39,567 bases of DNA, from NCBI GenBank assembly GCA_027483285.1, contig JAIXUZ010000080.1:1-39567 (forward strand). Direction: 5' to 3'. How positions within the stretch are numbered: position 1 is the first letter of the stretch; the number at the start of each line of letters is the position of its first letter. Source of the stretch: Bacteroidota bacterium. GTDB lineage: Bacteria; Bacteroidota; Bacteroidia; CAMBQF01. This document shows positions 4,291 through 28,186 of this stretch, one piece after another. The translations under genes and the position numbers were made by a program. The notes below the pieces were generated by a model. That model did not search any database. It saw only the letters and a list, made by a program, of their open reading frames with translations, and was not told the DNA's origin.

Positions 4291-7200
4291 CTATCGTGTA
4301 ATAACAACCTTTTGCGTTGGCAAAACTTTGTTCTCCATAGAGAAGCTTACAAAGTACTGGCCTTGGGCAAGATTACCTAAGTCGAAGTCATAAATGTTAG
4401 CGCCTGCTTTAGGCTCAACAAACATAGACTCTACCAATTGTCCATAGTGGTTGTATATCATTATACGGCCACGGTCGCTGGTTGATAGGTTCATTGATAC
4501 ATTCAACCTGTCTTGCGCAGGGTTAGGGAACACACTGATAACATCGCTACCTTTAATAACACAAGATACTGTTACAGGGCTAAACACCTCATACTCGCCA
4601 TTATAGTCGGTTTGCATTAAGCGGTAGTAAGCTGTTCCTGCTAAAGGATACAGGTCTTTAGCGCTGTAGTTGCGGTAAGTGTTGCTATTGCCTGCGCCTT
4701 GTACCAAAGCAACGTTGTCGTAAGTTGCTAAATCTGCACTGCGTTGAACAGTAAAGAAGTCATTATTAATCTCTGTTGCAGTAGTCCAGTTAATGGTTAC
4801 AACATCATTCGTACAGCTAGCTTTAAAGTCCACCAGTTCAATTGGCAGCGGGCTGTTGCCCGAGCTTTCGCCATCATGAAGTACCCATGGCGAGTAGCGA
4901 GACACACCTGATGCTGTAACGGTGTTATCAGCAGCATTAGCTGTACTAACAATACCATACTCAGTTGGCAAATCCCATCCGCCAAGGCTATCTGGGCCTC
5001 CAGTTGCATTCCAACGTTGAGCTTTAAGGTTATCCTCTAATATTGATGAGTTACCTGAAAGGTCAGAGCTTGCGTATTTAAACGTCATATTTGATGTTGG
5101 ACGCGTAGTATAGTTATTGGCATCAATAATCCACCAACGGTCAAGTGTAGCATCGGTTCCAGTACCCGGGCCCTGGTCAAAGTTCATGTGCTGAACGCCA
5201 GATACCCATGGGGTATTGTCGTCACCAGTAGGGTAAGTACTCAACGTAACATTGCCTGCACCACTTTGAACGCCAGCGCCAGTTACGCTAAACGTAAATG
5301 GAATAAAATCGCCCGCTGCAGTACCAAATGGATATACGTAAGTACCTGTATTATTACCAATGTTCCATGCCAGTTTAGATGTACCGCCCGATGTTTCGCT
5401 AATTACATAACCACCAGCTACAATACCAGTAGTTGCTCCGTTTTTAACGTTAAAGGTGTATCCGTTAAGATCTAACACACCATCAACAGTTAAAACACCT
5501 GTACTACGTGTTGCTGCATTAGCAAGCAACTGTACTCTTGGGTTGTTGCTGCTGCTATTATTAACATTAAAGTTGTTAAAGTCTACAGCGCTATTATTTA
5601 CTTTAAACACCTGGCTAGCCGGCGTGCTGGCATTACCAAACTGGAATGTACCGCCAGTAATGGTTTTAGTACCTCCTGCCGCAATTACAAGGTCGTTACC
5701 TGTGCCGCCGTTAGCACGCTGGAAGAATATAGTACCACTGCTAATATTTAAATTGCTGGTAGCATCAAGGTCTAGTATAGCATTAGCATTATAGCTTGCT
5801 CCGGTAGTATTCAAAGTCATAGCACCACCCGTTTGGTTAATGCTGCTACCTGTGCTAACATAATTGCCGCCAACACTAACTATAGCACCGCCTAATGAAA
5901 GTGTAGACGATGAACTGTTGGTGTATTTACCGCCAATAGATACTGTTGCACTATTTGCATTTACTGTTGATCCGCTAGAGCTATAATCGCCAACTATTGC
6001 AATGGTAGCACCACTGTAGGTTACGGTAGATGATGAAGCATTGCTCCAGTTTCCTCCTACATTAAGAACGCCACCTGCAGCTGTAACGGTTGCCCCAGTG
6101 TTGGCTACGTTGCCAGTTAAAACGCTGGTACCACCTGCATGAGTGTAGGTAGCCGTGCTACTGTTTGTTAAATTATTAAGGCTATCCGTTCCGCTTATTA
6201 CACTATATAAACCATTGTTGGTTACGTTTAAACCATCAGCCCTAAAGTTACCCTGTAAAATATCGGTGGTAACCTCAACACCAGCTGTAGAAGCAATGGT
6301 TGGTCCATTGTACAATTCAAGGTCTGCTTTAACTTGGGCTAAACCATTTATTGGTTGCAGATTACCATATACTACAGTATTAGTTTCTATACTTAATAAC
6401 GGTGTAATATCGGTTCCTTTATCTACTCTCAGGTTATAAAATTCTTGTGGGTCTGTAAAGCCGGTTAAAATAACGTTACCTGTTCCTTTAAAGGTAACGG
6501 TACTAACGTTGTAGTTAAATGTACCGCTATTGTTCCATGTACCCCAAACATCTAAGTTTCTGGTGTTGTTAATAGTCATAATAGAACCAGAATTCAGGTT
6601 AATGCTGCGGCAAACAGCACCATTAGATGCAATAACCGGGTCAAAATCTGTAATAGAACCTGTTGGTATAGTAATATCTGTTGATGAAGTTGGTATACCG
6701 CCACCTAAGCACCAGTTACCTCCATCAAACCAGTTATCGCTTAAAGAACCTTTCCAGCTTCCGGTAGTAACAACGTAAACGTTTACGTCAGCACCAAAAT
6801 TCATATCAAGCGCTGTACAAGGGTTACGGCTGCCTATAATTTTATAGGTTTTATCATTAGCTAATGCACCTGTGCTAAAGCTTAATGTAGATCCGTTACC
6901 TGTTTGCGTTGCGCCTACGTTAACGTTATCGGTAGTATTGTATAGTTGATATACAGTACCTGGTTCAGAATTTACAAGCTGCACAGTACCACTTGTTCCG
7001 CTACATATAGTAGTAGTAGAAGTAACTATTTTGTTAATAGGTCCGGTTACAACTGTAACTGCCAGGCTATTACTTACAGTACTGCCACATATGTTGGTAG
7101 CAGTTGCTACATAATTACCTGCCGAAGCAACTGAAGTAATAAACGAAACAGGGTCCTGAACAGAATTGCTGTAGCTATTAGGTCCGGTCCAGCTCCATGA

Positions 7201-10200
7201 TGTTGCTCCAGTACCACCAGTGGCTTCTAAATCCAATGGTTGAGTTTCACATAAGTTTGCTGATGTTGCTGATGCTGTAACAGCAGAAGGAACTGCTGCA
7301 GTAACTGCAAGTGCTAAAGTGTTACTTGTAGCATTACCGCACACGTTTGTGGCTGTAGCTATATAGTTTCCACCCGAAGCTGCAACGGTATTAAAAGATG
7401 CAGGGTCTTGGCTGGTACTTCCATAGCCGTTAGGGCCACTCCAGCTCCACGATGTAGCACCTGTACCACCAGTTGCATTTAAATCAAATGGCGAACCAGC
7501 ACACATAGCTAAAGAGTTAGCTGATGCTGTAACTGCTGATGGAACTGATGCTGTAAGAGCTAATGTAATGGCGCTGCTTGAAGTGCTGCCGCAAACGTTG
7601 GTTGCGGTAGCAGTATAGTTACCTGCCGATGTTGCAGATGTGCTAAACGCGGCCGGGTTTTGGTTAGTATTAGTATAAGAGTCTGGACCACTCCAGCTCC
7701 ACGATGTTGCACCTGTGCCACCCGAAGCATTTAAATCGAACGATGCGCCGGTACATAATGATAATGAGTTAGCAGATGCTGTAACAGCGCTAGGGGTAGA
7801 TAATGCCAGGGCTAGTGCTAACGCGCTGCTTGAAGTACTTCCGCAGGCATTGGTTGCTGTAGCTGTGTAGTTACCTGCCGATGCTGCAACTGTGCCGAAC
7901 GATGCAGGGTCTTGATTTGAGTCTGTGTAAGAGTTAGGGCCACTCCAGCTCCACGATGTTGCGCCTGCGCCACCGCTGGCATTCAAATCGAACGCGCTGC
8001 CAACACATAATAACAATGAGTTTGCCGATGCTGTAACCGCACCTGGGGCCGCCGCCGACAATCCTAATGTTAATGTATTACTCGTTGTGCTGCCACAAAC
8101 GTTTGTTGCAGTAGCAACGTAATTACCTGCCGATGCTGACACTGTTGTAAATGCTGCAGGGTCCTGGTTAGTATTAGTGTAGCTATTAGGGCCAGTCCAG
8201 CTCCAAGAAGCTGCTCCAGCTCCACCGCTGGCATTCAAGTTAAATGAGTTGCCAACGCACAATGCCAATGAGTTTGCCGATGCTGTAACAGCAGATGGTA
8301 CCGATGTTACAACGGTAACAGTAACAGCCACATCGTTATTCATATTCACATCAGCACATGGGCTAACAGAGGCAACAATTTTAAACGTTTTAGTTGCAGT
8401 TAATGCACCGGTAGTGAACGTTAAGTTAGAGCCAGTGCCTGCTTGGGTTGCGCTAAAGGTATTATCAGTAACGTTCCAAAGTTGATAGGTAACGCCATTA
8501 TCAGAGCCTGTTAGCACTATATCTGAAGAACTACCTGTACAAATAGTTGGGGTTGATGCTGTAACAGTTCTTTGTGTTGGCACCGGTATTACGTTCCATA
8601 CAGTTTCAACCCAACCTGTTGGGTTAGGATCGCAAGATAGGTTAGCATTAGCCGTACGTTGGCTACGAATACGAACTATGCCTGCGCCTGATAAACTTGT
8701 TGTAGAAACAGAATTACCTGGTGTATAGGCACTATATGTGTTACCGCCATTTGTTGATACTTCAAAAACATCTGCACCACCAACACCGCCAGAACCAATG
8801 GTATTAACTGTTGCAGAAACACTAGTACCTGCACAAATATCGCCAGCTGTTGGAGTAACAGCCATTATCGGACCTACAGGGTCTGTTACAATTGTGATGG
8901 TAGCAAAACTTGCAACACTCCAACCACAACAATTGTGGCGTTCACGGTAACGTACTTTATAGGTACCTGCTGTAGTAAAAGGGCCGAAAGTGCCTGTTGT
9001 AGAACTTACGGGGGTAAAAGTTGGGGCACCAATATTAGTACCTTGATAAACTATCCATTCACGTTCTAAAATATTGCCAGTATCATAAGAACCAGAGCTT
9101 ATTGAAAAATCAATACTTGCACCTGCACACGCCGAAACAGAAGTTGCTGCAGTAGCACCAGAACCTTGCACAATTAACCCTACAACCGGAGCTGTGCGGT
9201 TATCGGCAGCTGTTCTTATATAGTTATTATAACCGGTATTTGTGCCAACCATTGGTATAGAATAGTTGGAAGAGGTTGTAGTAGCAAAAACTTTTACTGG
9301 TTGTTGGGCATTTGTATAGTTTGGTGTACCATCAGTAATATCATCTACAAAACGTAAATCTGAAGCACCGGGAGAACCGGGAAGGTTAAACGCAACTGCC
9401 GCGCCACGGTTAATATCAAGCTCTGAGTTAATACAGAATTTACCATTAATACCACCACGATTATACGTAATTACCATAGGCGATGCTGAGTTTGGTACCG
9501 AACCTACGTTAGGTGCATCGTTAAAAGAAACAGCAGACAACGTGCCACCTAAAGTTGGGCCAGATGTAGTAGTTGCACCTGCCGATGTTAAGTTGGCAAT
9601 TGCATACTCAATACCTGCTTTACCAGTACCACCGGCACCACCGGCACCACCGTTACCTCCTTTTCCAGAACCACCACCTTCGCCTGAATCTCCACTTCCA
9701 CAGTTACCCGTACCAGTGCCTAAACCAGCTGGGCCTGTTCCGCCACTGCCACCAGCGCCACCGGCACCGCCAGAACCAACATTTAATGCATTTAAATAAC
9801 TATCTGTTACAAGGCCGGTAGCACCATTGGCCCAAATAAATATGGCAAAAGTACCACCGCCGCCGCCGCCGCCGTAGCCGCCGCCACCGCCGCCGCCGCC
9901 GCTGCTTCCGCCGCCGCCGCCTTGGCCGCCATCCCTATCACATGTACCACTATCTGTAGAGCCGCTGCCGCCTTCGCCGCCGCCGCCGCCTTTGCCACCG
10001 CCGCCGCCGCCGCCATTAGTACCTTCTGTTGGTAAAAAATATCCGCCTGAAAAACTTACTGTACCAGGGGTGCCACCAGGATTACCGTTTGTGCCATTTA
10101 CACCTGCAGCACCAGCACCACCATTGTTACCATTAGAACAACCGCTAGAAACACCAGCATTACCAAAACCGCCACCGCCGCCGGTTGTTCCACCGCCACC

Positions 10201-11907
10201 GCCGGTACCACCAGGCGATGCACTGCCACCTGCGGAGCCGTTTGAACCACCCGTGCCATCGCCACCACTACCGGTATTTGTACCTGAACAACGACCTTGT
10301 GAGCCGGCACCGCCAGCACCACCATTACCACCTGCACCGCCTGCACCATTGGTGCCAAAAGCAGCGCCGCCGCCGTTAGGCCCAGTAGTTGCACCCGCGC
10401 CAGGAGAACTGCTTCCAGCTCCGCCACCGCCACCGCCGCAACCACTGCATCCCCAATAGCAATCGCAACCACCATTGCTACCTGCCGAACCTGTATTACC
10501 GTTGCCGCCCGGTCTACCCGCGGCACCAGTACCTCCATTAGCAGCATTACCCGATGTTATAGAGCAGCGGGAAATAACATAATTATCACACGTATTAGTA
10601 GCTCCATTTATGTATACACCATAATTAGAATAGCCATGGCCACTGCTTGTTATTGCTGTTGTATTGCCGGTAGTAATTGTTAAATCCAGCAATCGCCAGT
10701 TATCATCATTGTTTTCAGCAACAAAGCCAACAGCAGCACCATATAAAGTGCCTGATGTAATAACGCTAGCACTGCTAAAGTTAATGGTAGTGGTAACATC
10801 GCTTCGTTTGCTCCAGGTTTTTATACCTGATGTGGTAGATACATTAAAACCACCTTCTACAATAACGTTAGAAGCTAAATAAGCAGGGGTTGTTTCTGTA
10901 TATATACCACTAGCCATGCGTATATGTGTACGGCCACCAAAAGATGCTAAATTATTAAGTACATAAGTCAGGTCTCTAGCAGGGTTGTTTGGGCCTGCGG
11001 TTGTATTGTTAGGGCCTGTGCCATCAACATAAATAAAATCGCAGTTGGCTGCGCTGCAAAGAGGGTCTGTTGCCGCCAGGTAAGTAACCGTTATAGCACC
11101 TGCGGTACCTGTTACGTTAGGTGAAACTGTTGTTAAAGAAGAAAAATCTGCTGTTTCATTAGATGTAATCCTAACACGGTAATATTCTGTACCTACCGTT
11201 TGGGGTACAGTAAATGATGAGCCTGTTGCCCCTGAAATATCTACATAAGCTGAGCCATTCCAACGTTGCCATTGAAAAAAGCGGCCCAATGTCCAACTGT
11301 CAATACTATTGGCTGCAACTGTAAGTGTGTAAGCAGTACCAACGCACAAACTGCTACCCGGAGCAACCGGTGCTGTTGTTACTGTTGGTGCTACTGTAAA
11401 ACCCCATTTATAACTCCAATCATATCGCCAATCGCCAGTAGTACCGTCAGACGAACAACTTCTGGTTGTAGTATAAAAATGCCAGGTATAAGGGCCATTT
11501 GTTGTAATAGGGACAGTATTTCCGCCTCCACAGGTGCCGTAGCCTCCACAAGAGGCATCGTCAGCCGCTACATCATCTTCAAAACCATCAAAAAGGGTAC
11601 AAATACCACCGGTATTGTTTAATGTTAAACTTGGAGCGGCTGGTGTTAGTGCATAATTGAAATCGCCAGACCACCCACAAGTATAATTGTCCCTGCTAAC
11701 GTTCCAATCGTAATTATTACCATTAATTACAAACCTTGCCCGCCAGCGTGGGTCGGGGTTTCCTGCAAAAACCTCATCGCCACAGCCACTCTCGTTGTAG
11801 TAAAGGTCTTCGCCATCTGCCTCGACCCAAATATTATTTTGTGCAGTACTAGCAAGGCTAATGAATAGCATAAAGCACAGCAAAATGTTTGTAAATTTTA
11901 TTTTCAT
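4291..11907 (-). CDS. Giant (2538 aa) secreted mosaic surface protein. Order: N-terminal Cys/Trp-rich region, Ig-like domain, beta-helix + polyglycine module, Ig-like arrays, S/T/N/G-rich solenoid-like region, T9SS type A sorting domain.
   Basis: Single uninterrupted ORF. Signal peptide MKIKFTNILLCFMLFISLASTAQ. The C-terminus VFPNPAQDRLNVSMNL...GQYFVSFSMENKVLPTQKVVITR matches the T9SS type A CTD pattern. A preceding LPIELVDFKASC...INWTTATEINNDFFTVQRS...YYRLMQTDYNGEYEVFSPV domain is common in Bacteroidota surface proteins. Confidence 0.9.
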   Translation of the reverse strand: MKIKFTNILLCFMLFISLASTAQNNIWVEADGEDLYYNESGCGDEVFAGNPDPRWRARFVINGNNYDWNVSRDNYTCGWSGDFNYALTPAAPSLTLNNTGGICTLFDGFEDDVAADDASCGGYGTCGGGNTVPITTNGPYTWHFYTTTRSCSSDGTTGDWRYDWSYKWGFTVAPTVTTAPVAPGSSLCVGTAYTLTVAANSIDSWTLGRFFQWQRWNGSAYVDISGATGSSFTVPQTVGTEYYRVRITSNETADFSSLTTVSPNVTGTAGAITVTYLAATDPLCSAANCDFIYVDGTGPNNTTAGPNNPARDLTYVLNNLASFGGRTHIRMASGIYTETTPAYLASNVIVEGGFNVSTTSGIKTWSKRSDVTTTINFSSASVITSGTLYGAAVGFVAENNDDNWRLLDLTITTGNTTAITSSGHGYSNYGVYINGATNTCDNYVISRCSITSGNAANGGTGAAGRPGGNGNTGSAGSNGGCDCYWGCSGCGGGGGGAGSSSPGAGATTGPNGGGAAFGTNGAGGAGGNGGAGGAGSQGRCSGTNTGSGGDGTGGSNGSAGGSASPGGTGGGGGTTGGGGGFGNAGVSSGCSNGNNGGAGAAGVNGTNGNPGGTPGTVSFSGGYFLPTEGTNGGGGGGGKGGGGGEGGSGSTDSGTCDRDGGQGGGGGSSGGGGGGGGYGGGGGGGTFAIFIWANGATGLVTDSYLNALNVGSGGAGGAGGSGGTGPAGLGTGTGNCGSGDSGEGGGSGKGGNGGAGGAGGTGKAGIEYAIANLTSAGATTTSGPTLGGTLSAVSFNDAPNVGSVPNSASPMVITYNRGGINGKFCINSELDINRGAAVAFNLPGSPGASDLRFVDDITDGTPNYTNAQQPVKVFATTTSSNYSIPMVGTNTGYNNYIRTAADNRTAPVVGLIVQGSGATAATSVSACAGASIDFSISSGSYDTGNILEREWIVYQGTNIGAPTFTPVSSTTGTFGPFTTAGTYKVRYRERHNCCGWSVASFATITIVTDPVGPIMAVTPTAGDICAGTSVSATVNTIGSGGVGGADVFEVSTNGGNTYSAYTPGNSVSTTSLSGAGIVRIRSQRTANANLSCDPNPTGWVETVWNVIPVPTQRTVTASTPTICTGSSSDIVLTGSDNGVTYQLWNVTDNTFSATQAGTGSNLTFTTGALTATKTFKIVASVSPCADVNMNNDVAVTVTVVTSVPSAVTASANSLALCVGNSFNLNASGGAGAASWSWTGPNSYTNTNQDPAAFTTVSASAGNYVATATNVCGSTTSNTLTLGLSAAAPGAVTASANSLLLCVGSAFDLNASGGAGATSWSWSGPNSYTDSNQDPASFGTVAASAGNYTATATNACGSTSSSALALALALSTPSAVTASANSLSLCTGASFDLNASGGTGATSWSWSGPDSYTNTNQNPAAFSTSATSAGNYTATATNVCGSTSSSAITLALTASVPSAVTASANSLAMCAGSPFDLNATGGTGATSWSWSGPNGYGSTSQDPASFNTVAASGGNYIATATNVCGNATSNTLALAVTAAVPSAVTASATSANLCETQPLDLEATGGTGATSWSWTGPNSYSNSVQDPVSFITSVASAGNYVATATNICGSTVSNSLAVTVVTGPINKIVTSTTTICSGTSGTVQLVNSEPGTVYQLYNTTDNVNVGATQTGNGSTLSFSTGALANDKTYKIIGSRNPCTALDMNFGADVNVYVVTTGSWKGSLSDNWFDGGNWCLGGGIPTSSTDITIPTGSITDFDPVIASNGAVCRSINLNSGSIMTINNTRNLDVWGTWNNSGTFNYNVSTVTFKGTGNVILTGFTDPQEFYNLRVDKGTDITPLLSIETNTVVYGNLQPINGLAQVKADLELYNGPTIASTAGVEVTTDILQGNFRADGLNVTNNGLYSVISGTDSLNNLTNSSTATYTHAGGTSVLTGNVANTGATVTAAGGVLNVGGNWSNASSSTVTYSGATIAIVGDYSSSGSTVNANSATVSIGGKYTNSSSSTLSLGGAIVSVGGNYVSTGSSINQTGGAMTLNTTGASYNANAILDLDATSNLNISSGTIFFQRANGGTGNDLVIAAGGTKTITGGTFQFGNASTPASQVFKVNNSAVDFNNFNVNNSSSNNPRVQLLANAATRSTGVLTVDGVLDLNGYTFNVKNGATTGIVAGGYVISETSGGTSKLAWNIGNNTGTYVYPFGTAAGDFIPFTFSVTGAGVQSGAGNVTLSTYPTGDDNTPWVSGVQHMNFDQGPGTGTDATLDRWWIIDANNYTTRPTSNMTFKYASSDLSGNSSILEDNLKAQRWNATGGPDSLGGWDLPTEYGIVSTANAADNTVTASGVSRYSPWVLHDGESSGNSPLPIELVDFKASCTNDVVTINWTTATEINNDFFTVQRSADLATYDNVALVQGAGNSNTYRNYSAKDLYPLAGTAYYRLMQTDYNGEYEVFSPVTVSCVIKGSDVISVFPNPAQDRLNVSMNLSTSDRGRIMIYNHYGQLVESMFVEPKAGANIYDFDLGNLAQGQYFVSFSMENKVLPTQKVVITR
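5800..6160 (-). repeat. Roughly 20-aa periodic S/T/N/G-rich segment inside the giant CDS (solenoid-like)
   Basis: Successive units: VLNVGGNWSNASSSTVTYSGAT / IAIVGDYSSSGSTVNANSAT / VSIGGKYTNSSSSTLSLGGAI / VSVGGNYVSTGSSINQTGGAM. An aliphatic-x-aliphatic-G-G/D-N/K/D-Y/W motif recurs about every 20-21 residues. Confidence 0.65.
7033..8292 (-). repeat. Five tandem 252-nt (84-aa) Ig-like repeats inside the giant CDS
   Basis: Each unit starts AVTASA(N/T)S..(L/M)C and contains GG(A/T)GA(A/T)SWSW(T/S)GP...AGNY.ATATN.CG. I counted five units, each exactly 84 aa. The nucleotide motif ccagctcca(c/t)gatgt recurs at about 7191, 7441, 7692 and 7944, with a diverged copy near 8196. Confidence 0.9.
9610..10555 (-). 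other. Polyglycine-rich segment of the shared module (paralog 1)
   Basis: Runs from ...SITSGNAANGGTGAAGRPGG to GGAGGAGGTGKAGIEYAIANL. Includes runs such as GGGGGGGKGGGGGEGG and GGGGGGGGYGGGGGGGTFAIFIWANG. Confidence 0.85.
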
Positions 11908-12347: not shown

Positions 12348-13433
12348 CTAATGTTTTTTCAACACCAATGTTTGCCAACTGAAATTTTTGTTGGAAAACG
12401 GATTTGACCATTCAGGGTTTCTGAGAATATTATCATCTTTAAAAAATTTGAAAAATTCTTCAATGTGACTCTTGTCATAATCCTTAACAAACATATTATT
12501 TAATGGCTGCTTTAGCCTTGAATTTTGAAACAAATGCAGGTCTGCAATATGATCATCATAATGCTCAAAAACCTCTGGTAGTGTTTTGAACCTGCCATCG
12601 TGCATGTAGGGGGCTGTATTGCTAATATTCAAAAGGCTTGGTACTTTAAAAAGTGTAGCATTAGAATCAATTAAATTAGTAGCTAAAATCTCATGATCGT
12701 TATATACCTCTGAGATATGGCATGCCCCGCACATATTTGCAAATCTAAAGTACAGGCCCCTAAGAGTTGTGTCTTTTACATTCTTGTAATAATAATCCGT
12801 TTCACTCATGTTTTCAGGTGGGTTATTTAATACCTCAGGGGGCAAGTGTATCCCCGATGAAACAATGGTTCTTAAGAATTGGGCAATGGCTTTTTCAACA
12901 TTGGTTCGCGTAATTTTTGGCGAACCAAAAGCTTTGCTAAATAGTGTAGGGTAATAAGGGTGGGTATTTAGTTTTTTTAATAGGCGGTCTTCTGTCTCGC
13001 CCATTTCTTTAGGCTCTAATATTGGCTCAAAAACAAGACTTTCAAGGCTTTTTTGGCGGCCGTCCCAAAAATAATATTTATTCCAAGCTAAATTTACTAA
13101 AGCCATCGCGTTACGTTCTAATGTATCGCCACGAGCCCCTATAGACAGTTTTCTACCATCAGTAAAACCTAAACTTTGTTTATGGCAAGAGCCGCAAGAC
13201 TGTGTATTATTTACAGATAGAATAGAATCATAAAACAATAACCTCCCTAACTCAACACCTTCAATAGTCAAAGGATTATCGGCAGGAATGAATGGCTTTT
13301 CCATGGCCGTTGAGTCGTACTCTAATATATACGGCCTAGTAGTGTAACTATTAGGATTGAATTTAGTTAATGCAACAAAAAACAACCAAAAAACAACTAT
13401 GGCTGCACCAACTACCTTCTTTTTCATATGCAA
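12348..13433 (-). CDS. Di-heme cytochrome c peroxidase / MauG-family protein, N-terminally membrane-anchored
   Basis: Two CxxCH heme motifs (CGSCHKQ and CGACHISE) about 145 aa apart. Also FWDGR, PSLLNISNTAPYMHDGRF.TL..V..HY, which is typical of the bacterial CCP family. N-terminal hydrophobic helix VVGAAIVVFWLFFVALT. Confidence 0.85.
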   Translation of the reverse strand: MHMKKKVVGAAIVVFWLFFVALTKFNPNSYTTRPYILEYDSTAMEKPFIPADNPLTIEGVELGRLLFYDSILSVNNTQSCGSCHKQSLGFTDGRKLSIGARGDTLERNAMALVNLAWNKYYFWDGRQKSLESLVFEPILEPKEMGETEDRLLKKLNTHPYYPTLFSKAFGSPKITRTNVEKAIAQFLRTIVSSGIHLPPEVLNNPPENMSETDYYYKNVKDTTLRGLYFRFANMCGACHISEVYNDHEILATNLIDSNATLFKVPSLLNISNTAPYMHDGRFKTLPEVFEHYDDHIADLHLFQNSRLKQPLNNMFVKDYDKSHIEEFFKFFKDDNILRNPEWSNPFSNKNFSWQTLVLKKH

Positions 13434-13434
13434 A

Positions 13435-18575: not shown

Positions 18576-21500
18576 ATGTTATTGCCGAAACGTTTACTAT
18601 ATAGGTTTTATTTACCGTTAATTACTTTTTTGCTTTTTGGCTTTTTGGCCAGCGGGCAACAGTGTAATATTATATACATTACCCCAAATGGAAATGGGGC
18701 GGGAACCAAAGCAAGCCCTGCCGGTTTAGCGGGCGGCATTGCTCTGGCAGCGCCTGGCAGCCAGCTATGGTTAGCAATAGGTAATTACACTATTAATGCA
18801 CCGATAAATTTACTGGACAATGTTACGCTTGAAGGAGGTTTCGACCCTGCCAACAACTGGACAAAAGTAAACACTGCGCAAACTATAATTAACCGTACCA
18901 ATGCCAACCCGCAAACTAACCCCGAGCGCTTAGTGGCGGTATCATGCATAAACATAACGGGCTTTACTATACAAGATGTAACTATAAAAACAGCCAATGC
19001 GCTAGGTAATGGGGTAACCACTTACGGGGTTTACTTAAATGGCTGTTCTAATTTTAACATTAGCCGCTGCAATGTTACCGGCGGCAATGGCTCTACCGGC
19101 TTACCCGGCACCCCTGGAATTAACGGTGTTAATGGCGCCAACGGCACAGCAGGGCAAAACGGCAGCGAAGATGGTGGCGGCAATACCGGCGGTGGTGTTG
19201 GTGCATCCGGCTCATACCCGGGCAGTAGTTTTGGCGGTAATGGCGGCAATGGCGGCGCACGTGGCACCTACTCATTTCCGGCAGGAGGCAATGCTCCAAA
19301 CGGAGCAGCCGGCCAAAACGGCGGCGGCACTGGTAATGGTATTGGTGGCGTTGCGGGTGTAGGTAATTGCAATTTTATATCTATTGGTTGCGATATGGGC
19401 CCGGCAAACGTTGGCCAGCCCGGAACAGATGGCCTTGATGGCGCTAATGGCGCTAATGGCGCATCAGGAACCCCATCATTTGCAGGTGGCTTTTTTGTTA
19501 ACGGTACAGGGCAAAATGGCACTGCCGGAGCAAATGGCGGTGGCGGTGGCGGTGGTGGCGGTGGCGGTGCACAAGGTTGCATACCCAATGGCTTCTTCAT
19601 TCCTAACAGTAATGGTGCAGGAGCTGGCGGCGGCGGTGGCGGAGAGGGTGCCCAAGGGGGAGCTGGAGCTTTAGGTGGTACTGGCGGAGGTGGCTCTTTT
19701 GGCATTTTTGCCTGGGCAAACGGTGCCAGCGGACGTGTTAAAGATACTTATACATTCTCAGGCATACCCGGCCAGGGCGGTCTTGGTGGCGCACCAGGCG
19801 GCTTAGGCGGTAACGGTGGTAACGGCGGTAACGGTGGTGGCCCGGGTTGCGATATTGGTAGCGGAGGCAGGGGCGGCAATGGCGGCGATGGTGGCGATGG
19901 TGGTAACGGTGGTAATGGAAGTTTAGGCCTTAGCTTACCTATTTTTGAAGACCCTAATGCTACTGCCTTAGAACAATCTGATATGCGCACACCCGTAGAG
20001 CCGGTTATTAATGTGCTAAATACAGGCTGTACATTTTCTGATATTGATTTTTCTACTACTGCAACAGGTATAGTACAATGGTTTTTTGATGGGGGAACAA
20101 TTCCATTACAGGCTGTTGGCAACAACGTAACTGTGCAGTATACCACACAAGGGCGACATACGGTAACTATGGTACTTAATGGTGTACCTTACATATATAC
20201 AGACTTTGTAGGCATCTTCTCAAACGGTATACCTTACCTACCTACTATTAACCCATCTAACGATACAGTATGTTTAGGCGGCACATTAGACTTTACCAGC
20301 TCTTTTGTAGGTACTAATTACGAGTGGTGGTTAGAGGGCACTACACCTGCAACATTTAACGGGCCACAATACCAAACCCTAAATGGTGTGCAGTTTAATA
20401 CCCTGGGCGATTACCGGATTTTGCTACAAACAACGTCGCCGTGCTGCGGACGTTCTACCATAGATACTATTTTGATACACGTTGTGCCTTATGTAAATGC
20501 CGATGTTTTTGTATTTGCATCATCAACCAGCATTTGTGCAGGCACACAAGTAAACTTTGGCGCATCGCCGGTAAATGGTGGCAATAACCCTGTATACACA
20601 TGGACAGTTAACGGTGCAACCGTTGGCACCAATAGCAATACCTATAGTTCATCAACCCTAAATAATGGCGATGTTGTGGCCGTTAGCATGAGCAGTAACC
20701 TGCTTTGCGTAAACAACAACCCGGCAGCATCTGTGCCTATTGTAATGACGGTTAACCAGCCGCCTGTGCTAAACTGTAGCTCTATTGGGCAGTTTTTAGG
20801 TGCCCCTACCCAGTTTTCGGTTAACCCGGTTGGCTCTCAACCATTTACCTATGCCTGGGATTTTGGCGATGGTGGTATATCAAACCTGCAAAACCCGCCA
20901 CATACTTATGGTTCTACAGGCAACTATACCGCAACAGTAACAGTTACCGATGCCAATGGCTGCGAGGCTACCTGCAATGTACAGGTTACTATTAGCATAG
21001 CCCCGCAGGTTACAGCTTTATTTACAGGAAATATTACTGCTATTGGCTGCGGCACAGGTTCTGTTAGCTTTACCGACCAAAGCACAGGTGGCGTTATACA
21101 ATGGACATGGGACTTTGGCGATGGTGTTACCGATGCCAACCCAAACCCTACCCACAACTATACCGCACCCGGTTATTATGATGTTACATTAATAGCTTCT
21201 AACGGCGTATTAGCAGACACTTTGGTGCTACCTAACTTTATCTACATACCACCTCCACCGGTTGCAGAGTTTACCGCTTTAGACAGCATTGAATGTGAGC
21301 CCTATATTTTTAGGTTCTTAGACCAATCGTTAGGTGGTGTTACTGATTGGTTGTGGGATTTTGGCGATGGTAACACATCGATACTGCAAAACCCATCGCA
21401 TGAATATGCAGCACCGGGTAGTTACAACGTTACACTTACCGTAACAACGGCAGATAACTGCACGGCAACGCTTACCACACCCAATTTTATACAATACCTT

Positions 21501-22274
21501 GAACAACCTGAAGCAGGTTTCTTTACCCTTGACACTTTAATGTGCACAGGCGAGGCTATATCTATAACTGACACCTCTGTTGCAGCTAATAAATGGCTGT
21601 ATTACTTTGGCGATGGCACACCTGTAGATGTAAACCAAAACCCGATACATGTATACACAGAGCCGGGCATTTATACTGTTACCCAAATAGTAGAAAACTC
21701 ATCGGGCTGCAGAGATACTATGATTGCTACGCAGTACATAGAGATTGTACCTTACCCTGAGGCTAACTTTAATGCCGATACCTTTAAACTACAATTGCCT
21801 GACACCACGGTGCAGTTTTTTAACCTAAGCCAGTACTACGATTCGCTGGTATGGGTACTGGGCAATGGCAACACTACATGGGTTGATAACCCCGTAGGTG
21901 TTTACCAGGATTCTGGCATTTATGTTATTACCCTTATTGTAAGCAACAGCATTGGATGTGTAGATACTTTGCAAATACCACTGCAGGTTATAGAGCAAGA
22001 ATCATTCTTTGTTCCAAACTCATTTACCCCTGACGATGACTTTATAAATGACAACTTTAGTGTGTTTGGCAGGGGAATTGTTAGTGGAGAGATGTATATA
22101 TACGACAGATGGGGCCAGCCCGTGTTTACTACCCCCGACCTATTTACAGGTTGGGATGGTACAACCAAAGACGGGAAGGATGCCATGATTGGCGTATATG
22201 TATATGACATTAAGATAACGTGGTTTACAGGCCGGACGTTTGAAAAGCGTGGCACCGTAACACTTATCAGGTAA
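18576..22274 (+). CDS. Large secreted protein (paralog 2). Order: beta-helix + polyglycine module, CCG Ig-like domain, Ig-like domain, five PKD domains, T9SS type B (gliding-motility CHU_C-type) sorting domain.
   Basis: Signal peptide LLPKRLLYRFYLPLITFLLFGFLASGQQ. PKD cores: YAWDFGDGG..NPPHTY...GNYTATVTVTD, WTWDFGDG, WLWDFGDGN, YYFGDG, WVLGNGN. C-terminus: FFVPNSFTPDDDFINDNFSVFG....MYIYDRWGQPVF......GWDGT.KDGKDAMIGVYVYDIKI......EKRGTVTLIR. The track start is TTG at 18570; the ATG at 18576 is preferred. Confidence 0.9.
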   Translation: MLLPKRLLYRFYLPLITFLLFGFLASGQQCNIIYITPNGNGAGTKASPAGLAGGIALAAPGSQLWLAIGNYTINAPINLLDNVTLEGGFDPANNWTKVNTAQTIINRTNANPQTNPERLVAVSCINITGFTIQDVTIKTANALGNGVTTYGVYLNGCSNFNISRCNVTGGNGSTGLPGTPGINGVNGANGTAGQNGSEDGGGNTGGGVGASGSYPGSSFGGNGGNGGARGTYSFPAGGNAPNGAAGQNGGGTGNGIGGVAGVGNCNFISIGCDMGPANVGQPGTDGLDGANGANGASGTPSFAGGFFVNGTGQNGTAGANGGGGGGGGGGGAQGCIPNGFFIPNSNGAGAGGGGGGEGAQGGAGALGGTGGGGSFGIFAWANGASGRVKDTYTFSGIPGQGGLGGAPGGLGGNGGNGGNGGGPGCDIGSGGRGGNGGDGGDGGNGGNGSLGLSLPIFEDPNATALEQSDMRTPVEPVINVLNTGCTFSDIDFSTTATGIVQWFFDGGTIPLQAVGNNVTVQYTTQGRHTVTMVLNGVPYIYTDFVGIFSNGIPYLPTINPSNDTVCLGGTLDFTSSFVGTNYEWWLEGTTPATFNGPQYQTLNGVQFNTLGDYRILLQTTSPCCGRSTIDTILIHVVPYVNADVFVFASSTSICAGTQVNFGASPVNGGNNPVYTWTVNGATVGTNSNTYSSSTLNNGDVVAVSMSSNLLCVNNNPAASVPIVMTVNQPPVLNCSSIGQFLGAPTQFSVNPVGSQPFTYAWDFGDGGISNLQNPPHTYGSTGNYTATVTVTDANGCEATCNVQVTISIAPQVTALFTGNITAIGCGTGSVSFTDQSTGGVIQWTWDFGDGVTDANPNPTHNYTAPGYYDVTLIASNGVLADTLVLPNFIYIPPPPVAEFTALDSIECEPYIFRFLDQSLGGVTDWLWDFGDGNTSILQNPSHEYAAPGSYNVTLTVTTADNCTATLTTPNFIQYLEQPEAGFFTLDTLMCTGEAISITDTSVAANKWLYYFGDGTPVDVNQNPIHVYTEPGIYTVTQIVENSSGCRDTMIATQYIEIVPYPEANFNADTFKLQLPDTTVQFFNLSQYYDSLVWVLGNGNTTWVDNPVGVYQDSGIYVITLIVSNSIGCVDTLQIPLQVIEQESFFVPNSFTPDDDFINDNFSVFGRGIVSGEMYIYDRWGQPVFTTPDLFTGWDGTTKDGKDAMIGVYVYDIKITWFTGRTFEKRGTVTLIR
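19080..19925 (+). other. Polyglycine-rich segment of the shared module (paralog 2)
   Basis: Runs from VTGGNGSTGLPGTPGINGVNGANG to GGNGGDGGDGGNGGNGSLGL. About 43% Gly in the first 60 residues, counted by hand. Conserved islands: TPSFAGGFFVN and GGGGSFGIFAWANGASGRVKDTY. Confidence 0.85.
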
Positions 22275-22285
22275 AACAAAAAAAT

Positions 22286-22750
22286 ATGAGAGCATATTTA
22301 ATTGCCATAGCAGCCATTGGCTTAGTAGCTGTATCGTGTAAAAGTAAAAAAGAAATGACCGGCAACACAGCTAAAGCAGACAGTCTTCAGGTAGCAGACA
22401 GCATTGCTAAAGTTTTTGCTGACATAGCTATTGCCGATGCGCAAAACACACCACCAACACCCAACGATAGCATCCGCCTAAACGTATCTTTTTACAGCCC
22501 GGGTAGCGGTATTAACTACCGCGCTGCCCAATCGCTTAATAGTTTTTTAACTAAATACGAGGCAGCTAACCCGGGTGTAGTAACGGTTTATAAAACCGCA
22601 TGGGGCCGCGAGGGCGAAGTGGATTATTGCTTTAAAATGAACGACAAAACAAAAGGCGACGACTTTGTAAAACAGGTAAAAGACCTTTTAGCGGGGCAAG
22701 ACCGTATTAACTACAAAGAAAATACAACCTGCCGTAAGCCAAGAAACTAA
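22286..22750 (+). CDS. Hypothetical lipoprotein (154 aa)
   Basis: Lipobox GLVAVSC. Starts 12 nt after the paralog 2 stop codon. No family recognised. Confidence 0.6.
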   Translation: MRAYLIAIAAIGLVAVSCKSKKEMTGNTAKADSLQVADSIAKVFADIAIADAQNTPPTPNDSIRLNVSFYSPGSGINYRAAQSLNSFLTKYEAANPGVVTVYKTAWGREGEVDYCFKMNDKTKGDDFVKQVKDLLAGQDRINYKENTTCRKPRN

Positions 22751-24961: not shown

Positions 24962-27900
24962 ATGCCATTTCGTATTTTTATTACACTTTCATTTCTGTTT
25001 TTAAGCGGCATACTTTTCGCCCAGGAGTGTAATATTATTTATGTAACCCCTAATGGCGCTACCAGTGGTGTAGCCGGTACAAAAACTACACCTGCAAGCC
25101 TTGCATACGCTTTAACCTTAGCCAATGCCCCAACCAATAAAATACATATGGCGGCGGGTACTTATATCATATCGCAACCCCTTAGCCTTGTAAGCAACAC
25201 CACTATTGAAGGGGGCTTTAACAGCAGCTGGGATAAAACCAATAACTCTGCCACAACTATTCTACGCGACAATCAAAATGTGCAGCCAAACCCCTTACGT
25301 TTAATTGGCTTAACGGGTAATAACATTAACAACTTCCGTTTACAGGATTTAACCATAAGGGTACTTACAACTTTTGATAATTCAGTATCAACCTACACCG
25401 TTTACCTAAACGGCTGCTCTGATTACCAATTGGTACGGTGCAAGCTTATAGGCGGCAATGCGGGTAACGGAACCAACGGTACTAATGGTGTTAATGGCAT
25501 AGGTGGTACTGGTGGCGCAGCAGGCTTAAACGGCGATGAAAATGGGACATGCTGCACCAATGGCGGCGCCGGAGGCTCAGGAAGCTTTCCGGGTAGCAAT
25601 GCCGGAGGAACAGGTGGTAATGGCGGACAACGCGGAACCTATGTTTTCCCTACGGGAGGGCAAGCCTACAATGGCAGCCAGGGTACTCCGGGGCAGGGGC
25701 TTAATGCTGGTGGCAACGGTTTTGGCGGTATAGGTATTTTTACTGTTATCCTGTCGCTTAACTGCGACCGGACAGTTTCATCAGACGGAACTGATGGTAT
25801 TGGCGGTATAGATGGATTACCCGGAATAGCGGGTGGTAACGGAACATCATCATTCAGCGGTGGTTTTTTTGTTCCCGGTGACGGATTGCCAGGTAACACA
25901 GGCCTTAATGGTGGCGGTGGCGGTGGTGCCGGCGGTGGTGGGTCGCAAGGTGGCCTTGCACACGATATTTTATTTGGCTTACCTCCTAACACTAACGGAT
26001 CTGGAGCTGGCGGCGGAGGCGGGGGCGAAGGTGGCCAGGGCGGCACAGGAGCATCTGGCGGAACAGGCGGTGGTGGCGCATTTTGCCTTTACCTATACAA
26101 CAACGGTGCTAACGGACTTATAAAAGATTGCCAGTATACTGTAGGTTTTCCTGGCTTTGGTGGCCAAGGCGGCCAGGGCGGCATTGGTGGCACAGGCGGA
26201 ATAGGTGGTGCCGGCGGTGGGCAGTTTAACTGCGATGTTGGTGCCGGTGGCGATGGCGGAGCAGGTGGAAAAGGTGGTAACGGCGGAGCAGGTGGTGCCG
26301 GGGCTGATGGGGTAAGCTATGCTGTTTATGAAGATGGCGGAACACCCATACAACAATATAATATTAACGGCCTGCAGCAACCTATTGTACAGGTTAATTA
26401 CTCAGGCTGCACAGGTGTACCTGTTGAATTTTTTACCACTGCAACAGGCAGTGTAACCTGGTATTTTGGTGCAGGCGCCAGCCCTGCAACAGGCGTTGGC
26501 ACCACTGGCTTATGCCAGTTTAACACCACTGGCCGCAAAACATTTACAATGGTAAACAACGGCGTAGCTTACACCTTTACCGATTATATTGATATTTTTA
26601 ACAACCAGGCTAACCCAATACCATCTATTACCGTGGCCGATGACAGCCTTTGCGAAGGCGAAACAACAACACTGGCCAGCAGCATTGCATCAGACTCATA
26701 CAACTGGTTTGTAACAGGGCCTAACGGATATTTTGATATTGTTACGGGTGCCACTAACCAAACATTACCGGGCTACGTATTCCCCACACCGGGAAACTAC
26801 CGTTTTGTTTTGCAAACAATTAGCAACTGCTGCGGCCCATCATTTGCTGATACAGCTTTTGTGAATGTGGAAGACATATTGCAGCCTGTGGTAAGCATAG
26901 CATCGAGCATAGATACTATTTGCCAAAACGAAATTGTGGTGTTTACTGCCGAAGCTGATAGTGTAGGCGCTAACCCAGGCTACCAATGGTTTGTAAACAG
27001 CACCCCTGTAGGAGCAGATGCTCCGGCATACTCAAGTTCTAATATTGCCAATGGCGATGTAATTACCTGCCAGGTAACATCAAGCCTGGGATGCGGCACA
27101 GGCTTGCAGGCAACATCTAACAATGTATCAGTATATGTTATAGCACCGCCACAGCTTACATGCAATGCCGACTCTTTTATAACCGGGCGTCCTACTTATT
27201 TTGACACAGAGGTTACATCTGGCGGATTAGCCCCGTTTGATTATATATGGGACTTTGGCGATAACGCCAGCGGACAGGGGCCTAACTTATCGCATATTTA
27301 TGCCGAGCCAGGGCCTTACAGTATTACCGTTACGGTTACCGATGCCAACGGCTGCAGCAATACCTGCACGTTTGTTATTTCAGTATCGAGTATTCTGGCT
27401 GCCAACTACGACTTATCTGCTACTGGAGGTTGTCCGCCATTAACGGTTGACTTTACCAATAACAGTACCAATGCGGTAACCTATTTGTGGGATTTTGGCG
27501 ATGGTTCAACCTCTCCGCAGGAAAACCCAACACATACCTACAACTCGCCGGGCACCTACGATGTAACGCTATATGCCTTTGGCGTTAGTGGTAACGTGAG
27601 CACCAGCACGCCTAACCAAATAGCCATATACCCAACTCCAACGGCAAACTTTTTGGCGTTTCCTATTAACGTAGAAAACGGTAGCGACTCTATCCAGTTT
27701 ACCGATAACTCTTTTGATGCTACCACCTGGTTGTGGGATTTTGGCGACCCTGCATCGGGAGCAAACAATACCTCTACCCTACCCGCCCCAATACACTGGT
27801 ACGCAGGCAATGGTACCTACAACGTTACGCTGATTGTAACCAACACTTTTGGCTGTACCGATACAGTTAGCAAAAACAACCTGTTTGGTGTAAACGTGGG

Positions 27901-28186
27901 GCTTAATGAGCAAAACCAGCCGGTAAGCGGCCTACAAGTATACCCTAACCCTACCACAGGTAACCTAAACCTTAGTTTTACGCTAAACGAAAAAGGGCCT
28001 TTGAAAATTGATTTGTATAGCATTGATGGCCGCTTAGCCGCCCCATTATTTAATACTATGCAAAGCAACGCCGGTGAGTATAAACTTAATTACGCATTGC
28101 CCGCCGACCTGCAAACAGGCCTGTATTTGTTACGTATAGTACAAAATGGTAAGTTGGGTATTGCAAAAGTTAGTGTAGTGCGATAA
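24962..28186 (+). CDS. Large secreted protein (paralog 3). Order: beta-helix + polyglycine module, CCG Ig-like domain, Ig-like domain, three PKD domains, T9SS type A sorting domain.
   Basis: Signal peptide MPFRIFITLSFLFLSGILFAQE. PKD cores: YIWDFGDN, YLWDFGDGSTSPQENPTHTY, WLWDFGDP. C-terminus: LQVYPNPTTGNLNLSFTL...GLYLLRIVQNGKLGIAKVSVVR. Confidence 0.9.
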   Translation: MPFRIFITLSFLFLSGILFAQECNIIYVTPNGATSGVAGTKTTPASLAYALTLANAPTNKIHMAAGTYIISQPLSLVSNTTIEGGFNSSWDKTNNSATTILRDNQNVQPNPLRLIGLTGNNINNFRLQDLTIRVLTTFDNSVSTYTVYLNGCSDYQLVRCKLIGGNAGNGTNGTNGVNGIGGTGGAAGLNGDENGTCCTNGGAGGSGSFPGSNAGGTGGNGGQRGTYVFPTGGQAYNGSQGTPGQGLNAGGNGFGGIGIFTVILSLNCDRTVSSDGTDGIGGIDGLPGIAGGNGTSSFSGGFFVPGDGLPGNTGLNGGGGGGAGGGGSQGGLAHDILFGLPPNTNGSGAGGGGGGEGGQGGTGASGGTGGGGAFCLYLYNNGANGLIKDCQYTVGFPGFGGQGGQGGIGGTGGIGGAGGGQFNCDVGAGGDGGAGGKGGNGGAGGAGADGVSYAVYEDGGTPIQQYNINGLQQPIVQVNYSGCTGVPVEFFTTATGSVTWYFGAGASPATGVGTTGLCQFNTTGRKTFTMVNNGVAYTFTDYIDIFNNQANPIPSITVADDSLCEGETTTLASSIASDSYNWFVTGPNGYFDIVTGATNQTLPGYVFPTPGNYRFVLQTISNCCGPSFADTAFVNVEDILQPVVSIASSIDTICQNEIVVFTAEADSVGANPGYQWFVNSTPVGADAPAYSSSNIANGDVITCQVTSSLGCGTGLQATSNNVSVYVIAPPQLTCNADSFITGRPTYFDTEVTSGGLAPFDYIWDFGDNASGQGPNLSHIYAEPGPYSITVTVTDANGCSNTCTFVISVSSILAANYDLSATGGCPPLTVDFTNNSTNAVTYLWDFGDGSTSPQENPTHTYNSPGTYDVTLYAFGVSGNVSTSTPNQIAIYPTPTANFLAFPINVENGSDSIQFTDNSFDATTWLWDFGDPASGANNTSTLPAPIHWYAGNGTYNVTLIVTNTFGCTDTVSKNNLFGVNVGLNEQNQPVSGLQVYPNPTTGNLNLSFTLNEKGPLKIDLYSIDGRLAAPLFNTMQSNAGEYKLNYALPADLQTGLYLLRIVQNGKLGIAKVSVVR
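25450..26310 (+). other. Polyglycine-rich segment of the shared module (paralog 3)
   Basis: Runs from LIGGNAGNGTNGTNGVNGIGG to GGKGGNGGAGGAGADGVSYAVY. Conserved islands: TSSFSGGFFVP and GGGGAFCLYLYNNGANGLIKDCQY. Confidence 0.85.

Follow-up and report, generated by a model that had tools for sequence, protein, structure and literature searches.

Polyglycine-II (PPII) helix bundles are glycine-rich folds in which helices with one, two or three buried faces have the sequence patterns GXX, GGX and GGG, respectively (10.1101/2023.11.25.568672; PMC13243192). Natural bundles have been described in springtail antifreeze proteins, Obg, acetophenone carboxylase, the phage S16 gp38 tip, the ALK/LTK glycine-rich domain and mycobacteriophage Bxb1 gp33/gp29, and they have been predicted in the PE_PGRS proteins; a Bacteroidota family is not mentioned (10.1101/2023.11.25.568672; PMC13243192). 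Such bundles are rare and recently recognised, with fewer than ten natural examples in reviews, and they are of interest for protein design and antifreeze function. Here we analysed a contig of 39,567 nucleotides from a freshwater Bacteroidota bacterium (JAIXUZ010000080.1, referred to as the window), which encodes three large, predicted secreted surface proteins, P1, P2 and P3. Each carries one copy of the same head domain. The core of this head spans ~430 aa (profile positions 1-430) and consists of a beta-helix part of ~140 aa followed by a glycine region of ~290 aa. The head is probably a beta-helix-capped PPII helix bundle, a structural claim that rests on prediction.

Type IX secretion system (T9SS) cargo proteins lose their C-terminal sorting domain and are attached to the outer surface near the C-terminus. 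Beta-helices, PPII bundles and T9SS cargo on PKD stalks are known as separate kinds. The combination of a beta-helix with PPII helices, the fixed six-segment architecture described below and the family itself were not found in Pfam, NCBIfam, the PDB or the searchable literature. Our overall explanation, to which we assign a probability of roughly 0.55, is that a PPII-rod head on a T9SS stalk serves as a stiff scaffold that presents loops for binding.

Three predicted T9SS cargo proteins with one head domain

Hydrophobic N-termini were visible in the translations of P1, P2 and P3, and all three proteins end in a sorting domain. Those of P1 (PF18962, E=5e-11) and P3 (PF18962, E=3e-9; also TIGR04183 in NCBIfam) are of type A, whereas that of P2 is of type B (PF13585, E=5e-12; also TIGR04131 in NCBIfam). 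With a Sec signal peptide and a C-terminal sorting domain of type A or B, the three proteins have the make-up of T9SS cargo, as far as can be read from the sequence. Their layout is as follows (methods in brackets).

4291-11907, minus strand: P1, predicted T9SS cargo of 2538 aa, with the order signal peptide, 264-aa N-terminal region, internal head, Ig-like repeats, long region without Pfam match, sorting domain (open reading frame (ORF) list and translation)
4300-4533, minus strand: P1 type A sorting domain, Por_Secre_tail (Pfam)
9589-11049, minus strand: P1 head, whole core, aa 287-773 (profile match)
10555-11049, minus strand: P1 head, beta-helix part, aa 287-451, beginning at the ANCDFIYVDGTG island (profile E=2.7e-38, segment map)
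9589-10554, minus strand: P1 head, glycine-periodic part, aa 452-773, with segments of 28/19/19/25/25/22 aa and an enlarged loop A of 116 aa
8878-9195, minus strand: P1 Ig-like CCG domain, ~aa 905-1010, with RHNCCGWSV at aa 990 (BLASTP against P3, E=2e-5)
18576-22274, plus strand (ORF start 18570/18576): P2, predicted T9SS cargo of 1232 aa from the ATG, with the order signal peptide, head, PKD-like domain, Ig_7-like CCG domain, PKD array, sorting domain
18657-19952, plus strand: P2 head, whole core, aa 28-459
18657-19079, plus strand: P2 head, beta-helix part, aa 28-168 (AlphaFold2 strands, Foldseek)
19080-19952, plus strand: P2 head, glycine-periodic part, aa 169-459
19953-20234, plus strand: P2 PKD-like domain (sub-threshold Pfam)
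20235-20495, plus strand: P2 Ig_7-like CCG domain (sub-threshold Pfam)
22011-22262, plus strand: P2 type B sorting domain, CHU_C, TIGR04131 (Pfam, NCBIfam)
24962-28186, plus strand: P3, predicted T9SS cargo of 1074 aa, with the order signal peptide, head, PKD-like domain, Ig_7-like CCG domain, three PKD domains, sorting domain
25022-26335, plus strand: P3 head, whole core, aa 21-458
25022-25450, plus strand: P3 head, beta-helix part, aa 21-163 (BLASTP, profile)
25451-26335, plus strand: P3 head, glycine-periodic part, aa 164-458, with segments of 28/19/19/25/24/22 aa
26336-26881, plus strand: P3 PKD-like domain and Ig_7-like CCG domain (sub-threshold Pfam)
27938-28168, plus strand: P3 type A sorting domain (Pfam, NCBIfam)

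BLASTP aligned P2 and P3 at 45% identity over 710 aa (E=2e-96), collinearly through the signal peptide, the head and the first Ig domains. Composition correction left only the N-terminal 156 aa between P1 and P2 (36% identity, E=1e-15) and retained the CCG domain between P1 and P3 (E=2e-5). A profile iterated from the P2 module matched P1 in two collinear pieces, aa 287-517 at profile positions 2-200 (E=2.7e-38) and aa 568-773 at profile positions 224-430 (E=2.9e-21), and an independent profile from alignment A1 matched the same two pieces at E=1.4e-40 and 1.6e-25. These alignments argue firmly that P1, P2 and P3 are paralogous T9SS cargo proteins with one copy of the head domain each.

An earlier note on this DNA had proposed three large genes in which seven motif islands mark one conserved head module on divergent stalks with different types of sorting domain. 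The ORFs confirmed the three genes, every one of the seven islands was found in the translations of P1, P2 and P3, and both the shared head and the difference in sorting domains were supported. The note had named beforehand, as an outcome that would speak against it, a failure of the three regions to align collinearly beyond glycine composition; they did align, by BLASTP for P2 and P3 and by the two ordered profile pieces for P1, and they agree in glycine periodicity and segment lengths. The conserved core is, however, shorter than the module outlined in the note, which ran on through the CCG domain.

The CCG domain had been counted as a part of the module, and this assignment was given up. 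Against PF19081 (Ig_7, 'Ig-like domain CHU_C associated'; cut-off 27.3 bits), the CCG domain scored 22.0 bits in P2 (E=2e-4) and 25.0 bits in P3 (E=2.3e-5), and that of P1 gave no Pfam match at E<=1. PF19081 was matched outright by many homologs. Family members of ~650 aa consist of the head, one small domain and the tail, and the CCG domain, which lies beyond the core, was not seen among the short members inspected. The CCG domain is thus best assigned to the stalk repertoire, outside the core module. The PKD-like domain that follows the head of P2 was also a sub-threshold match (PKD, E=9e-4).

The predicted mature N-termini all start with Gln (ASG/QQC in P2, cleavage site at 18645-18665; LFA/QEC in P3, 25013-25030; STA/QNN in P1, 11830-11845). 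The pattern agrees with the 'Q-rule' of Bacteroidetes, by which signal peptidase I substrates tend to carry Gln at the mature N-terminus. Since the internal module of P1 lacks this Gln, the residue would be part of the site cut by the signal peptidase, outside the module.

A large family without a curated model

In full-length P1-P3, Pfam and NCBIfam recognised only the stalk and the tail (PKD domains, Ig_2, Por_Secre_tail and CHU_C/TIGR04131) and gave no family for the head. When 36 diverse heads, which were aligned separately, were searched at E<=1, Pfam returned only PF12708 and PF02286, in one member each; the PF12708 (Pect-lyase_RHGA_epim, pectate lyase) match was weak. The Pfam models for the ALK/LTK glycine-rich and the phage glycine-rich tail-fibre domains, which we take to be Gly_rich and Gly_rich_2, gave no match among the 36 members at the same threshold. 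Sequence and profile searches of the PDB revealed no solved sequence relative of the head: the non-collagen matches were glycine-serine linkers only, and the family profile matched collagen chains with E down to 6.5e-18 and a very high composition bias. An RTX calcium-binding beta-roll (GGXGXDXUX nonapeptides) was considered and rejected, as the glycine period is 3 instead of 9 and there was no HemolysinCabind match in P1-P3 or in the 36 members. The earlier note had been unable to place the module in a characterised family, and the Pfam, NCBIfam and PDB searches bear this out.

In a word-index search, the P2 head had 384 matches at E<=1e-5. Almost all of these homologs are unnamed, 'hypothetical', 'PKD domain-containing' or 'T9SS sorting domain-containing', and their sources include Flavobacteriales, Fluviicola, Crocinitomix and unclassified Bacteroidota. 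A profile of the 36 heads was then searched against 1.84 billion cluster representatives and matched 11,176 of them at E<=1e-3, 6,055 at E<=1e-10 and 2,566 at E<=1e-30. Among the matches listed, profile positions 1-430 were covered end to end. Across the family, the module takes one of two positions: immediately behind the signal peptide (P2 and P3) or, like that of P1, several hundred residues further in, within proteins of up to 5,362 aa. In many giant family members ~550 residues precede the head, as the N-terminal region does in P1. These searches argue that the head is a real, uncurated domain present in thousands of other proteins.

One subgroup of homologs lacks the T9SS tail and carries the head at the C-terminus, often with PF11617 metal-binding-motif repeats upstream. 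The members of this tail-less subgroup (P0102, P0105, P0106, P0109-P0120; L007 6001-8091) terminate in GGHGGGGAGGPSYAVYR. At the L007 locus, the neighbours of the tail-less head gene encode ABC sugar transporters and RCC1-repeat proteins.

The glycine region carries a phased code

The anatomy of the head was derived from 230 complete modules aligned to the family profile and from the alignment of 36 heads. In the latter, 26 columns are invariant, of which 25 are Gly and one is Tyr; the near-invariant columns are Gly, Pro, Trp or Tyr, and the glycines are spaced three residues apart in runs. In the 230 modules the glycine region contains six periodic segments, named PPII-1 to PPII-6, with median lengths of 28, 19, 19, 25, 24 and 22 residues and standard deviations (SD) of 0.1-2.0. 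The segment lengths of P1 and P2 are identical (28/19/19/25/25/22), and P3 differs by one residue (24 instead of 25 in PPII-5). The lengths of the loops vary widely (loop A 48-133 aa, loop B 6-33 aa, loop C 6-30 aa), and all three loops are cysteine-bearing. Between the segments lie non-glycine elements, island 4 (SFxGGFF), island 5 (SFGIYxxNG...D) and a closing strand. After the beta-helix, the elements follow one another in the order given here with P2 coordinates (plus strand).

19080-19163: PPII-1
19164-19412: loop A
19413-19469: PPII-2
19470-19508: island 4
19509-19565: PPII-3
19566-19619: loop B
19620-19694: PPII-4
19695-19760: island 5
19761-19835: PPII-5
19836-19862: loop C
19863-19928: PPII-6
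19929-19949: closing strand

The periodic columns are mostly 90-100% Gly, and the X positions hold chiefly A, N, S, T and D. Repeats of the form (GXX)n make up PPII-1 and PPII-2, (GGX)7 makes up PPII-6, PPII-5 follows GGX with one register shift, and PPII-3 and PPII-4 hold poly-G runs with Gly in all three phases. The power of glycine at period 3 exceeded that of shuffles of the residues in these same regions by 8.5 SD in P2, 6.7 SD in P3 and 5.2 SD in P1. The Gly-phased GXX, GGX and GGG runs expected of PPII helices are thus found among the 230 members (z=5.2-8.5 in P1-P3). The earlier note had spoken of polyglycine that is not random low complexity. The latter point holds, and the former needs refining, as the region reads as a strictly phased GXX/GGX/GGG code.

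The glycine region could also be seen as a flexible or disordered low-complexity spacer, with only the islands folded. It is 40-43% Gly, DSSP assigned almost no secondary structure to it, and composition correction in BLAST stripped most of the similarity of P1. The glycine phase is nevertheless kept column by column (mostly at 90-100%) and the segment lengths are fixed to within 0.1-2 residues across the 230 proteins, and pLDDT (see below) is mostly >90. Orthologs of P1, P2 and P3 with 88-92% protein identity were found in three freshwater metagenome-assembled genomes (MAGs; L001-L003), which are labelled Chitinophaga pinensis MAG, Flavobacteriales bacterium and, as a complete chromosome, 'Sphingobacteriales bacterium'. 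Scanning genome contigs with a single protein brought up close relatives alone. Against these three orthologs, the ratio of nonsynonymous to synonymous substitution rates (dN/dS) was 0.04-0.08 for both the beta-helix and the glycine parts (0.05-0.08 for the glycine region), which indicates clear purifying selection, is about equal to that of the stalk and excludes a freely drifting spacer. The disordered spacer was rejected on column conservation and dN/dS, and we regard it as highly improbable. As the earlier note had expected, the islands are conserved in the orthologs, and they are conserved across the 230 family members as well.

In the comparison of P2 (18576-22274) with its counterpart in L001 (7908-11615), dS was mosaic, being ~1.0-1.25 in the head, 0.63 in the PKD-like/CCG part and only 0.245 in the stalk and sorting domain. 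The pattern points to recombination, either by head swapping or by stalk exchange, with its breakpoint somewhere within ~aa 460-640.

Predicted structure of the head

An AlphaFold2 model of the P2 head, built with the 36-sequence alignment, had a mean predicted local distance difference test score (pLDDT) of 91.2 (88-91 for all five models) and a predicted template modelling score (pTM) of 0.79. Beta strands occupied module residues 1-141 (pLDDT 86-98). In residues 142-425 DSSP found almost neither helix nor strand, the exceptions being short island strands at 204-212, 274-281 and 347-367 and, following them, the closing strand at 426-431; most 10-residue blocks in this range had pLDDT >90. 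When the glycine part was modelled alone, it again lacked helix and strand (pLDDT 87.8, pTM 0.80).

Foldseek matched the full model through its N-terminal part only, and all matches were right-handed parallel beta-helices, including the PL9 rhamnogalacturonan lyase 5OLQ (E=1.1e-3, probability 1.00), the pectate lyase Pel9A (1RU4), the pectin methylesterase 1QJV and phage tailspikes. The probabilities for 5OLQ, 1RU4 and 1QJV were 0.98-1.00. The template modelling (TM) score was ~0.2, because two thirds of the query had no counterpart. The first ~140 aa are therefore predicted to form a pectate-lyase-like right-handed parallel beta-helix of ~five rungs, and the N-terminal beta-helix suggested by the earlier note is borne out by the model and by Foldseek. 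The start of the head (IYVxPxG...G...P) may resemble that of DUF1565-type beta-helix proteins.

These matches raise the possibility that the head is an enzyme, a beta-helix polysaccharide lyase or hydrolase with the glycine region as a stabilising or substrate-binding appendix. GH87 and PL6 enzymes were among the best structural matches besides those named above, and the one weak Pect-lyase_RHGA_epim match points in the same direction. The structural matches, however, had TM 0.2, 8-13% identity and E>=1e-3 over ~170-190 columns only, and the beta-helix has no more than ~five rungs. Neither conserved catalytic residues of lyases or hydrolases nor a significant Pfam match was found among the 36 members; no acidic or basic residue is conserved in their alignment, in which the invariant columns are all Gly or Tyr, and even the E of EGGF is substituted in several members (IVGGF, VFGGY, SVYGGY). 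An enzymatic head is thus unlikely.

We interpret the glycine region as a bundle of PPII helices on three agreeing grounds: its phased code, the fixed lengths of its segments and a confident model that lacks helix and strand. In the PDB, the glycine-only model gave one Foldseek match, the Obg GTPase 1LNZ, which was not significant (E=8.7, 36 columns, root-mean-square deviation (rmsd) 2.6 Å) and can be taken as a hint at most. The N-terminal domain of Obg is itself a glycine-rich PPII bundle (10.1101/2023.11.25.568672; PMC13243192). In the BFVD, a set of predicted viral structures, the matches were weak (E>=5e-3, TM<=0.24, very large rmsd) and comprised proteins with collagen repeats, tail-fibre proteins with a 'glycine-rich domain' and minor tail proteins of mycobacteriophages.

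With collagen-repeat proteins among the top BFVD matches, collagen chains among the PDB profile matches and clean (GXX)7-10 runs in PPII-1 and PPII-2, the GXX runs might instead form intermolecular collagen-like triple helices, by which the head would trimerise like bacterial collagen-like proteins. The PDB matches are, however, compositional matches of high bias, and Pfam Collagen (PF01391) was not matched at E<=1 by P1-P3 or by the 36 members. The runs have only 7-10 triplets and alternate with segments of GGX and poly-G, patterns that collagen lacks, and the monomer was modelled as one compact unit (pTM 0.8). We consider collagen-like trimers a little less probable still than an enzyme.

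Returning to the PPII bundle, the order of the elements suggests three out-and-back hairpins with the loops at the far end, a topology that would be rooted at the beta-helix end. At 3.1 Å per residue, segments of 19-28 residues would measure ~60-85 Å if straight, which would exceed the helices of any solved example. The head may, tentatively, represent an undescribed fold class, in which six antiparallel polyglycine-II helices form a long rod nucleated by a beta-helix, to make a new surface recognition or binding head.

A possible role in binding

If the head is built in this way, the six glycine segments would run out and back as three antiparallel hairpins, which would pack together as a rigid rod with a glycine core. 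After every hairpin, one of the short beta elements (SFxGGFF, SFGIYxxNG...D or the closing strand) would lead back to the end that carries the beta-helix, and the far end of the rod would hold loops A, B and C. The sorting domain would tether the cargo to the surface, with the PKD/Ig domains as a stalk. Because the tether is C-terminal and the PKD/Ig stalk lies in between, the N-terminal head would be held distal from the cell. The stiff scaffold may then present the variable loops for ligand binding, in the manner of the glycine sandwich of phage gp38 adhesins. It is this logic, a constrained rigid scaffold with three variable, cysteine-bearing loops, on which the proposal of a binding or recognition head is founded. 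The binding function taken by itself is a tentative assignment by analogy, for which we would put the chances somewhat below even.

Tandem duplication might supply a repertoire of heads. In three distant genomes three head-module genes stand in tandem (52-56% identity), which makes local paralog clusters a recurring feature of the family. These same-strand triplets were found in Bacteroidota MAGs at L004 814-11654, L005 912-11645 and L006 2-11651. The three genes are directly adjacent in L004 and L005. In L006 an ORF of 572 aa without a head-profile match lies between the second and third genes, and the first runs off the end of the locus. In the window lineage the three head genes are scattered and one is inverted.

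Several points weigh against the scaffold explanation. The glycine part had no significant Foldseek match to any solved PPII bundle in the PDB or the BFVD; as sequence homology was not found either, we do not claim homology to the known bundles. We infer the PPII backbone of the segments from the lack of helix and strand, the high model confidence and the sequence code, and the confidence of AlphaFold on glycine repeats is little calibrated by experiment. The co-occurrence of cysteines did not yield a clean pattern of disulfides by which loops B and C would be brought together. At the region level, the head showed no diversifying selection (dN/dS 0.04-0.08). Finally, the variable loops could be tolerated insertions without a binding role.

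The same fold could also serve a role other than ligand binding. It might bind to ice or mineral surfaces, like the antifreeze proteins of springtails, or self-associate to form a coat on the surface. Arthropod antifreeze proteins are the sole natural PPII bundles with a known flat surface-binding function (10.1101/2023.11.25.568672). Small residues (A, N, S, T) occupy the exposed X positions, and isolate names suggest that the closest genomes come from lakes that freeze seasonally. Family members, however, also come from many other settings, and the PDB profile matches included no antifreeze protein. We regard such a role as unlikely, though slightly less so than an enzymatic one. An antifreeze-like protein of Flavobacterium (2026 paper) was considered and set aside as an unrelated beta-helix of the ice-binding-protein (IBP) type.

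Flanking regions and neighbouring genes

Outside the head, P1 contains three further stretches. Aa 23-286 (11050-11841, minus strand) form a Cys/Trp-rich region before the internal head with a weak GEVED-domain match (E=7e-3). At 7432-8293 (minus strand) lies a 252-bp (84-aa) tandem repeat of ~5 copies with 74-76% identity, which encodes Ig_2-like units with the motif SWSW(T/S)GPN...GNY.ATATN.CGS. Between the Ig repeats and the sorting domain, ~aa 1700-2450 (4534-6800, minus strand) comprise ~750 residues rich in N, T, S and G that gave no Pfam match at E<=1; this region could be a second solenoid-like domain.

Directly downstream of P2 an ORF of 154 aa (22286-22750, plus strand) without Pfam match is conserved in L001-L003. 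Type B sorting domains use a PorP/SprF-type partner. The ORF is too short to be such a partner, and no such gene was seen near P2.

The other genes of the window are mostly housekeeping genes and include those for an M24 peptidase, a di-haem cytochrome c peroxidase, a GNAT acetyltransferase, aspartate kinase, TatC, a DedA/VTT protein, ExbB/ExbD proteins and a GDPD phosphodiesterase. Two more genes specify predicted T9SS cargo, a VWA protein with Por_Secre_tail (16230-17381, plus strand) and a glucose/sorbosone dehydrogenase with Por_Secre_tail (29762-31669, minus strand), which brings the predicted T9SS substrates in 39.5 kb to five.

The earlier note had suggested that the heads and their neighbours form a dedicated surface system, and the genomic comparison did not support this. 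The genes for the extracytoplasmic function (ECF) sigma factor, the TPR protein, the VWA protein and other neighbours recur only in the near-identical L001-L003 (88-92% identity), and the TPR gene is already gone from the closest relative, L001. In six distant loci (four distinct regions), none of the window neighbours was present within 6-8 kb (maximum) on either side of the head genes; a 197-aa ORF upstream of the head cluster in L004 is unrelated to the sigma factor of the window. ECF sigma factor, TPR and VWA genes were therefore rejected as a conserved system.

Two differences were seen among the close relatives. At 3234-5464 of L001, two di-haem peroxidase genes stand in tandem and a TPR gene is lacking, where the window has one peroxidase, an ORF of 137 aa and a TPR protein of 641 aa (12348-15960). 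In L003 (CP096135.1, 750-6700), the genes for the peroxidase, the TPR protein and the VWA protein are broken up into several ORFs that overlap, which looks like assembly indel errors and not like real pseudogenes.

Comparison with known systems

If the structural reading is correct, the head would constitute by far the largest natural PPII-bundle family, with thousands of members, and the first in secreted proteins of Bacteroidota, and it would add a new kind of head for the recognition or binding of surfaces. A family of this size would greatly enlarge the PPII class and offer many natural variants for studying how bundles fold. For the biology of Bacteroidota, the family represents an abundant unannotated head on T9SS surface proteins, which deserves a curated profile and a search for ligands.

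P1-P3 resemble the Bacteroidota T9SS proteins with PKD/Ig stalks (CHU-type) in their signal peptides, PKD domains, Ig_7-like domains and tails of type A or B, and differ from them in the head, which has no curated model or named relative. With the pectate-lyase-like beta-helix proteins (5OLQ, 1RU4, 1QJV), the N-terminal ~140 residues of the head share the predicted fold, whereas the head has only ~five rungs, 8-13% identity and no conserved catalytic residues.

The mycobacterial PE_PGRS proteins are likewise bacterial surface proteins that are rich in GGX, modelled by AlphaFold as PPII bundles and expanded into paralogs (PMC13243192, PMC10216338). In contrast to these, the head proteins lack a PE domain and have six fixed segments instead of open-ended repeats, and no homology was detected. 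The secretion route differs as well, being ESX-5 for PE_PGRS and, by prediction, the T9SS for the head proteins.

In the tip adhesin gp38 of phage S16 and T-even phages (a polyglycine-II sandwich, 6F45), as in the head, conserved glycine motifs alternate with variable segments. The gp38 domain stands, and the head would stand, at the free tip of a fibre-like protein, an arrangement that points to a loop-presenting scaffold in both. S16 gp38 (6F45) was absent from both the PDB profile matches and the Foldseek PDB matches of the head. Receptor binding was demonstrated for gp38, whereas for the head it is only proposed. Moreover, gp38 is a phage protein of ~260 aa with ten short helices, whereas the head would be part of a cellular T9SS cargo protein and combine six long segments with a beta-helix cap.

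With the glycine-rich PPII bundles in general, the head shares the three-residue glycine code, the small polar X residues and a confident AlphaFold model without helix or strand. Fusion to unrelated flanking domains is also common to both and is typical of such bundles (10.1101/2023.11.25.568672; PMC13243192). The helices of sfAFP, S16 gp38 and ALK have 4-11 residues (PMC13243192), whereas the segments of the head have 19-28 residues, and the head is distinguished further by its fusion to a predicted beta-helix and by the beta islands interleaved with its glycine segments.

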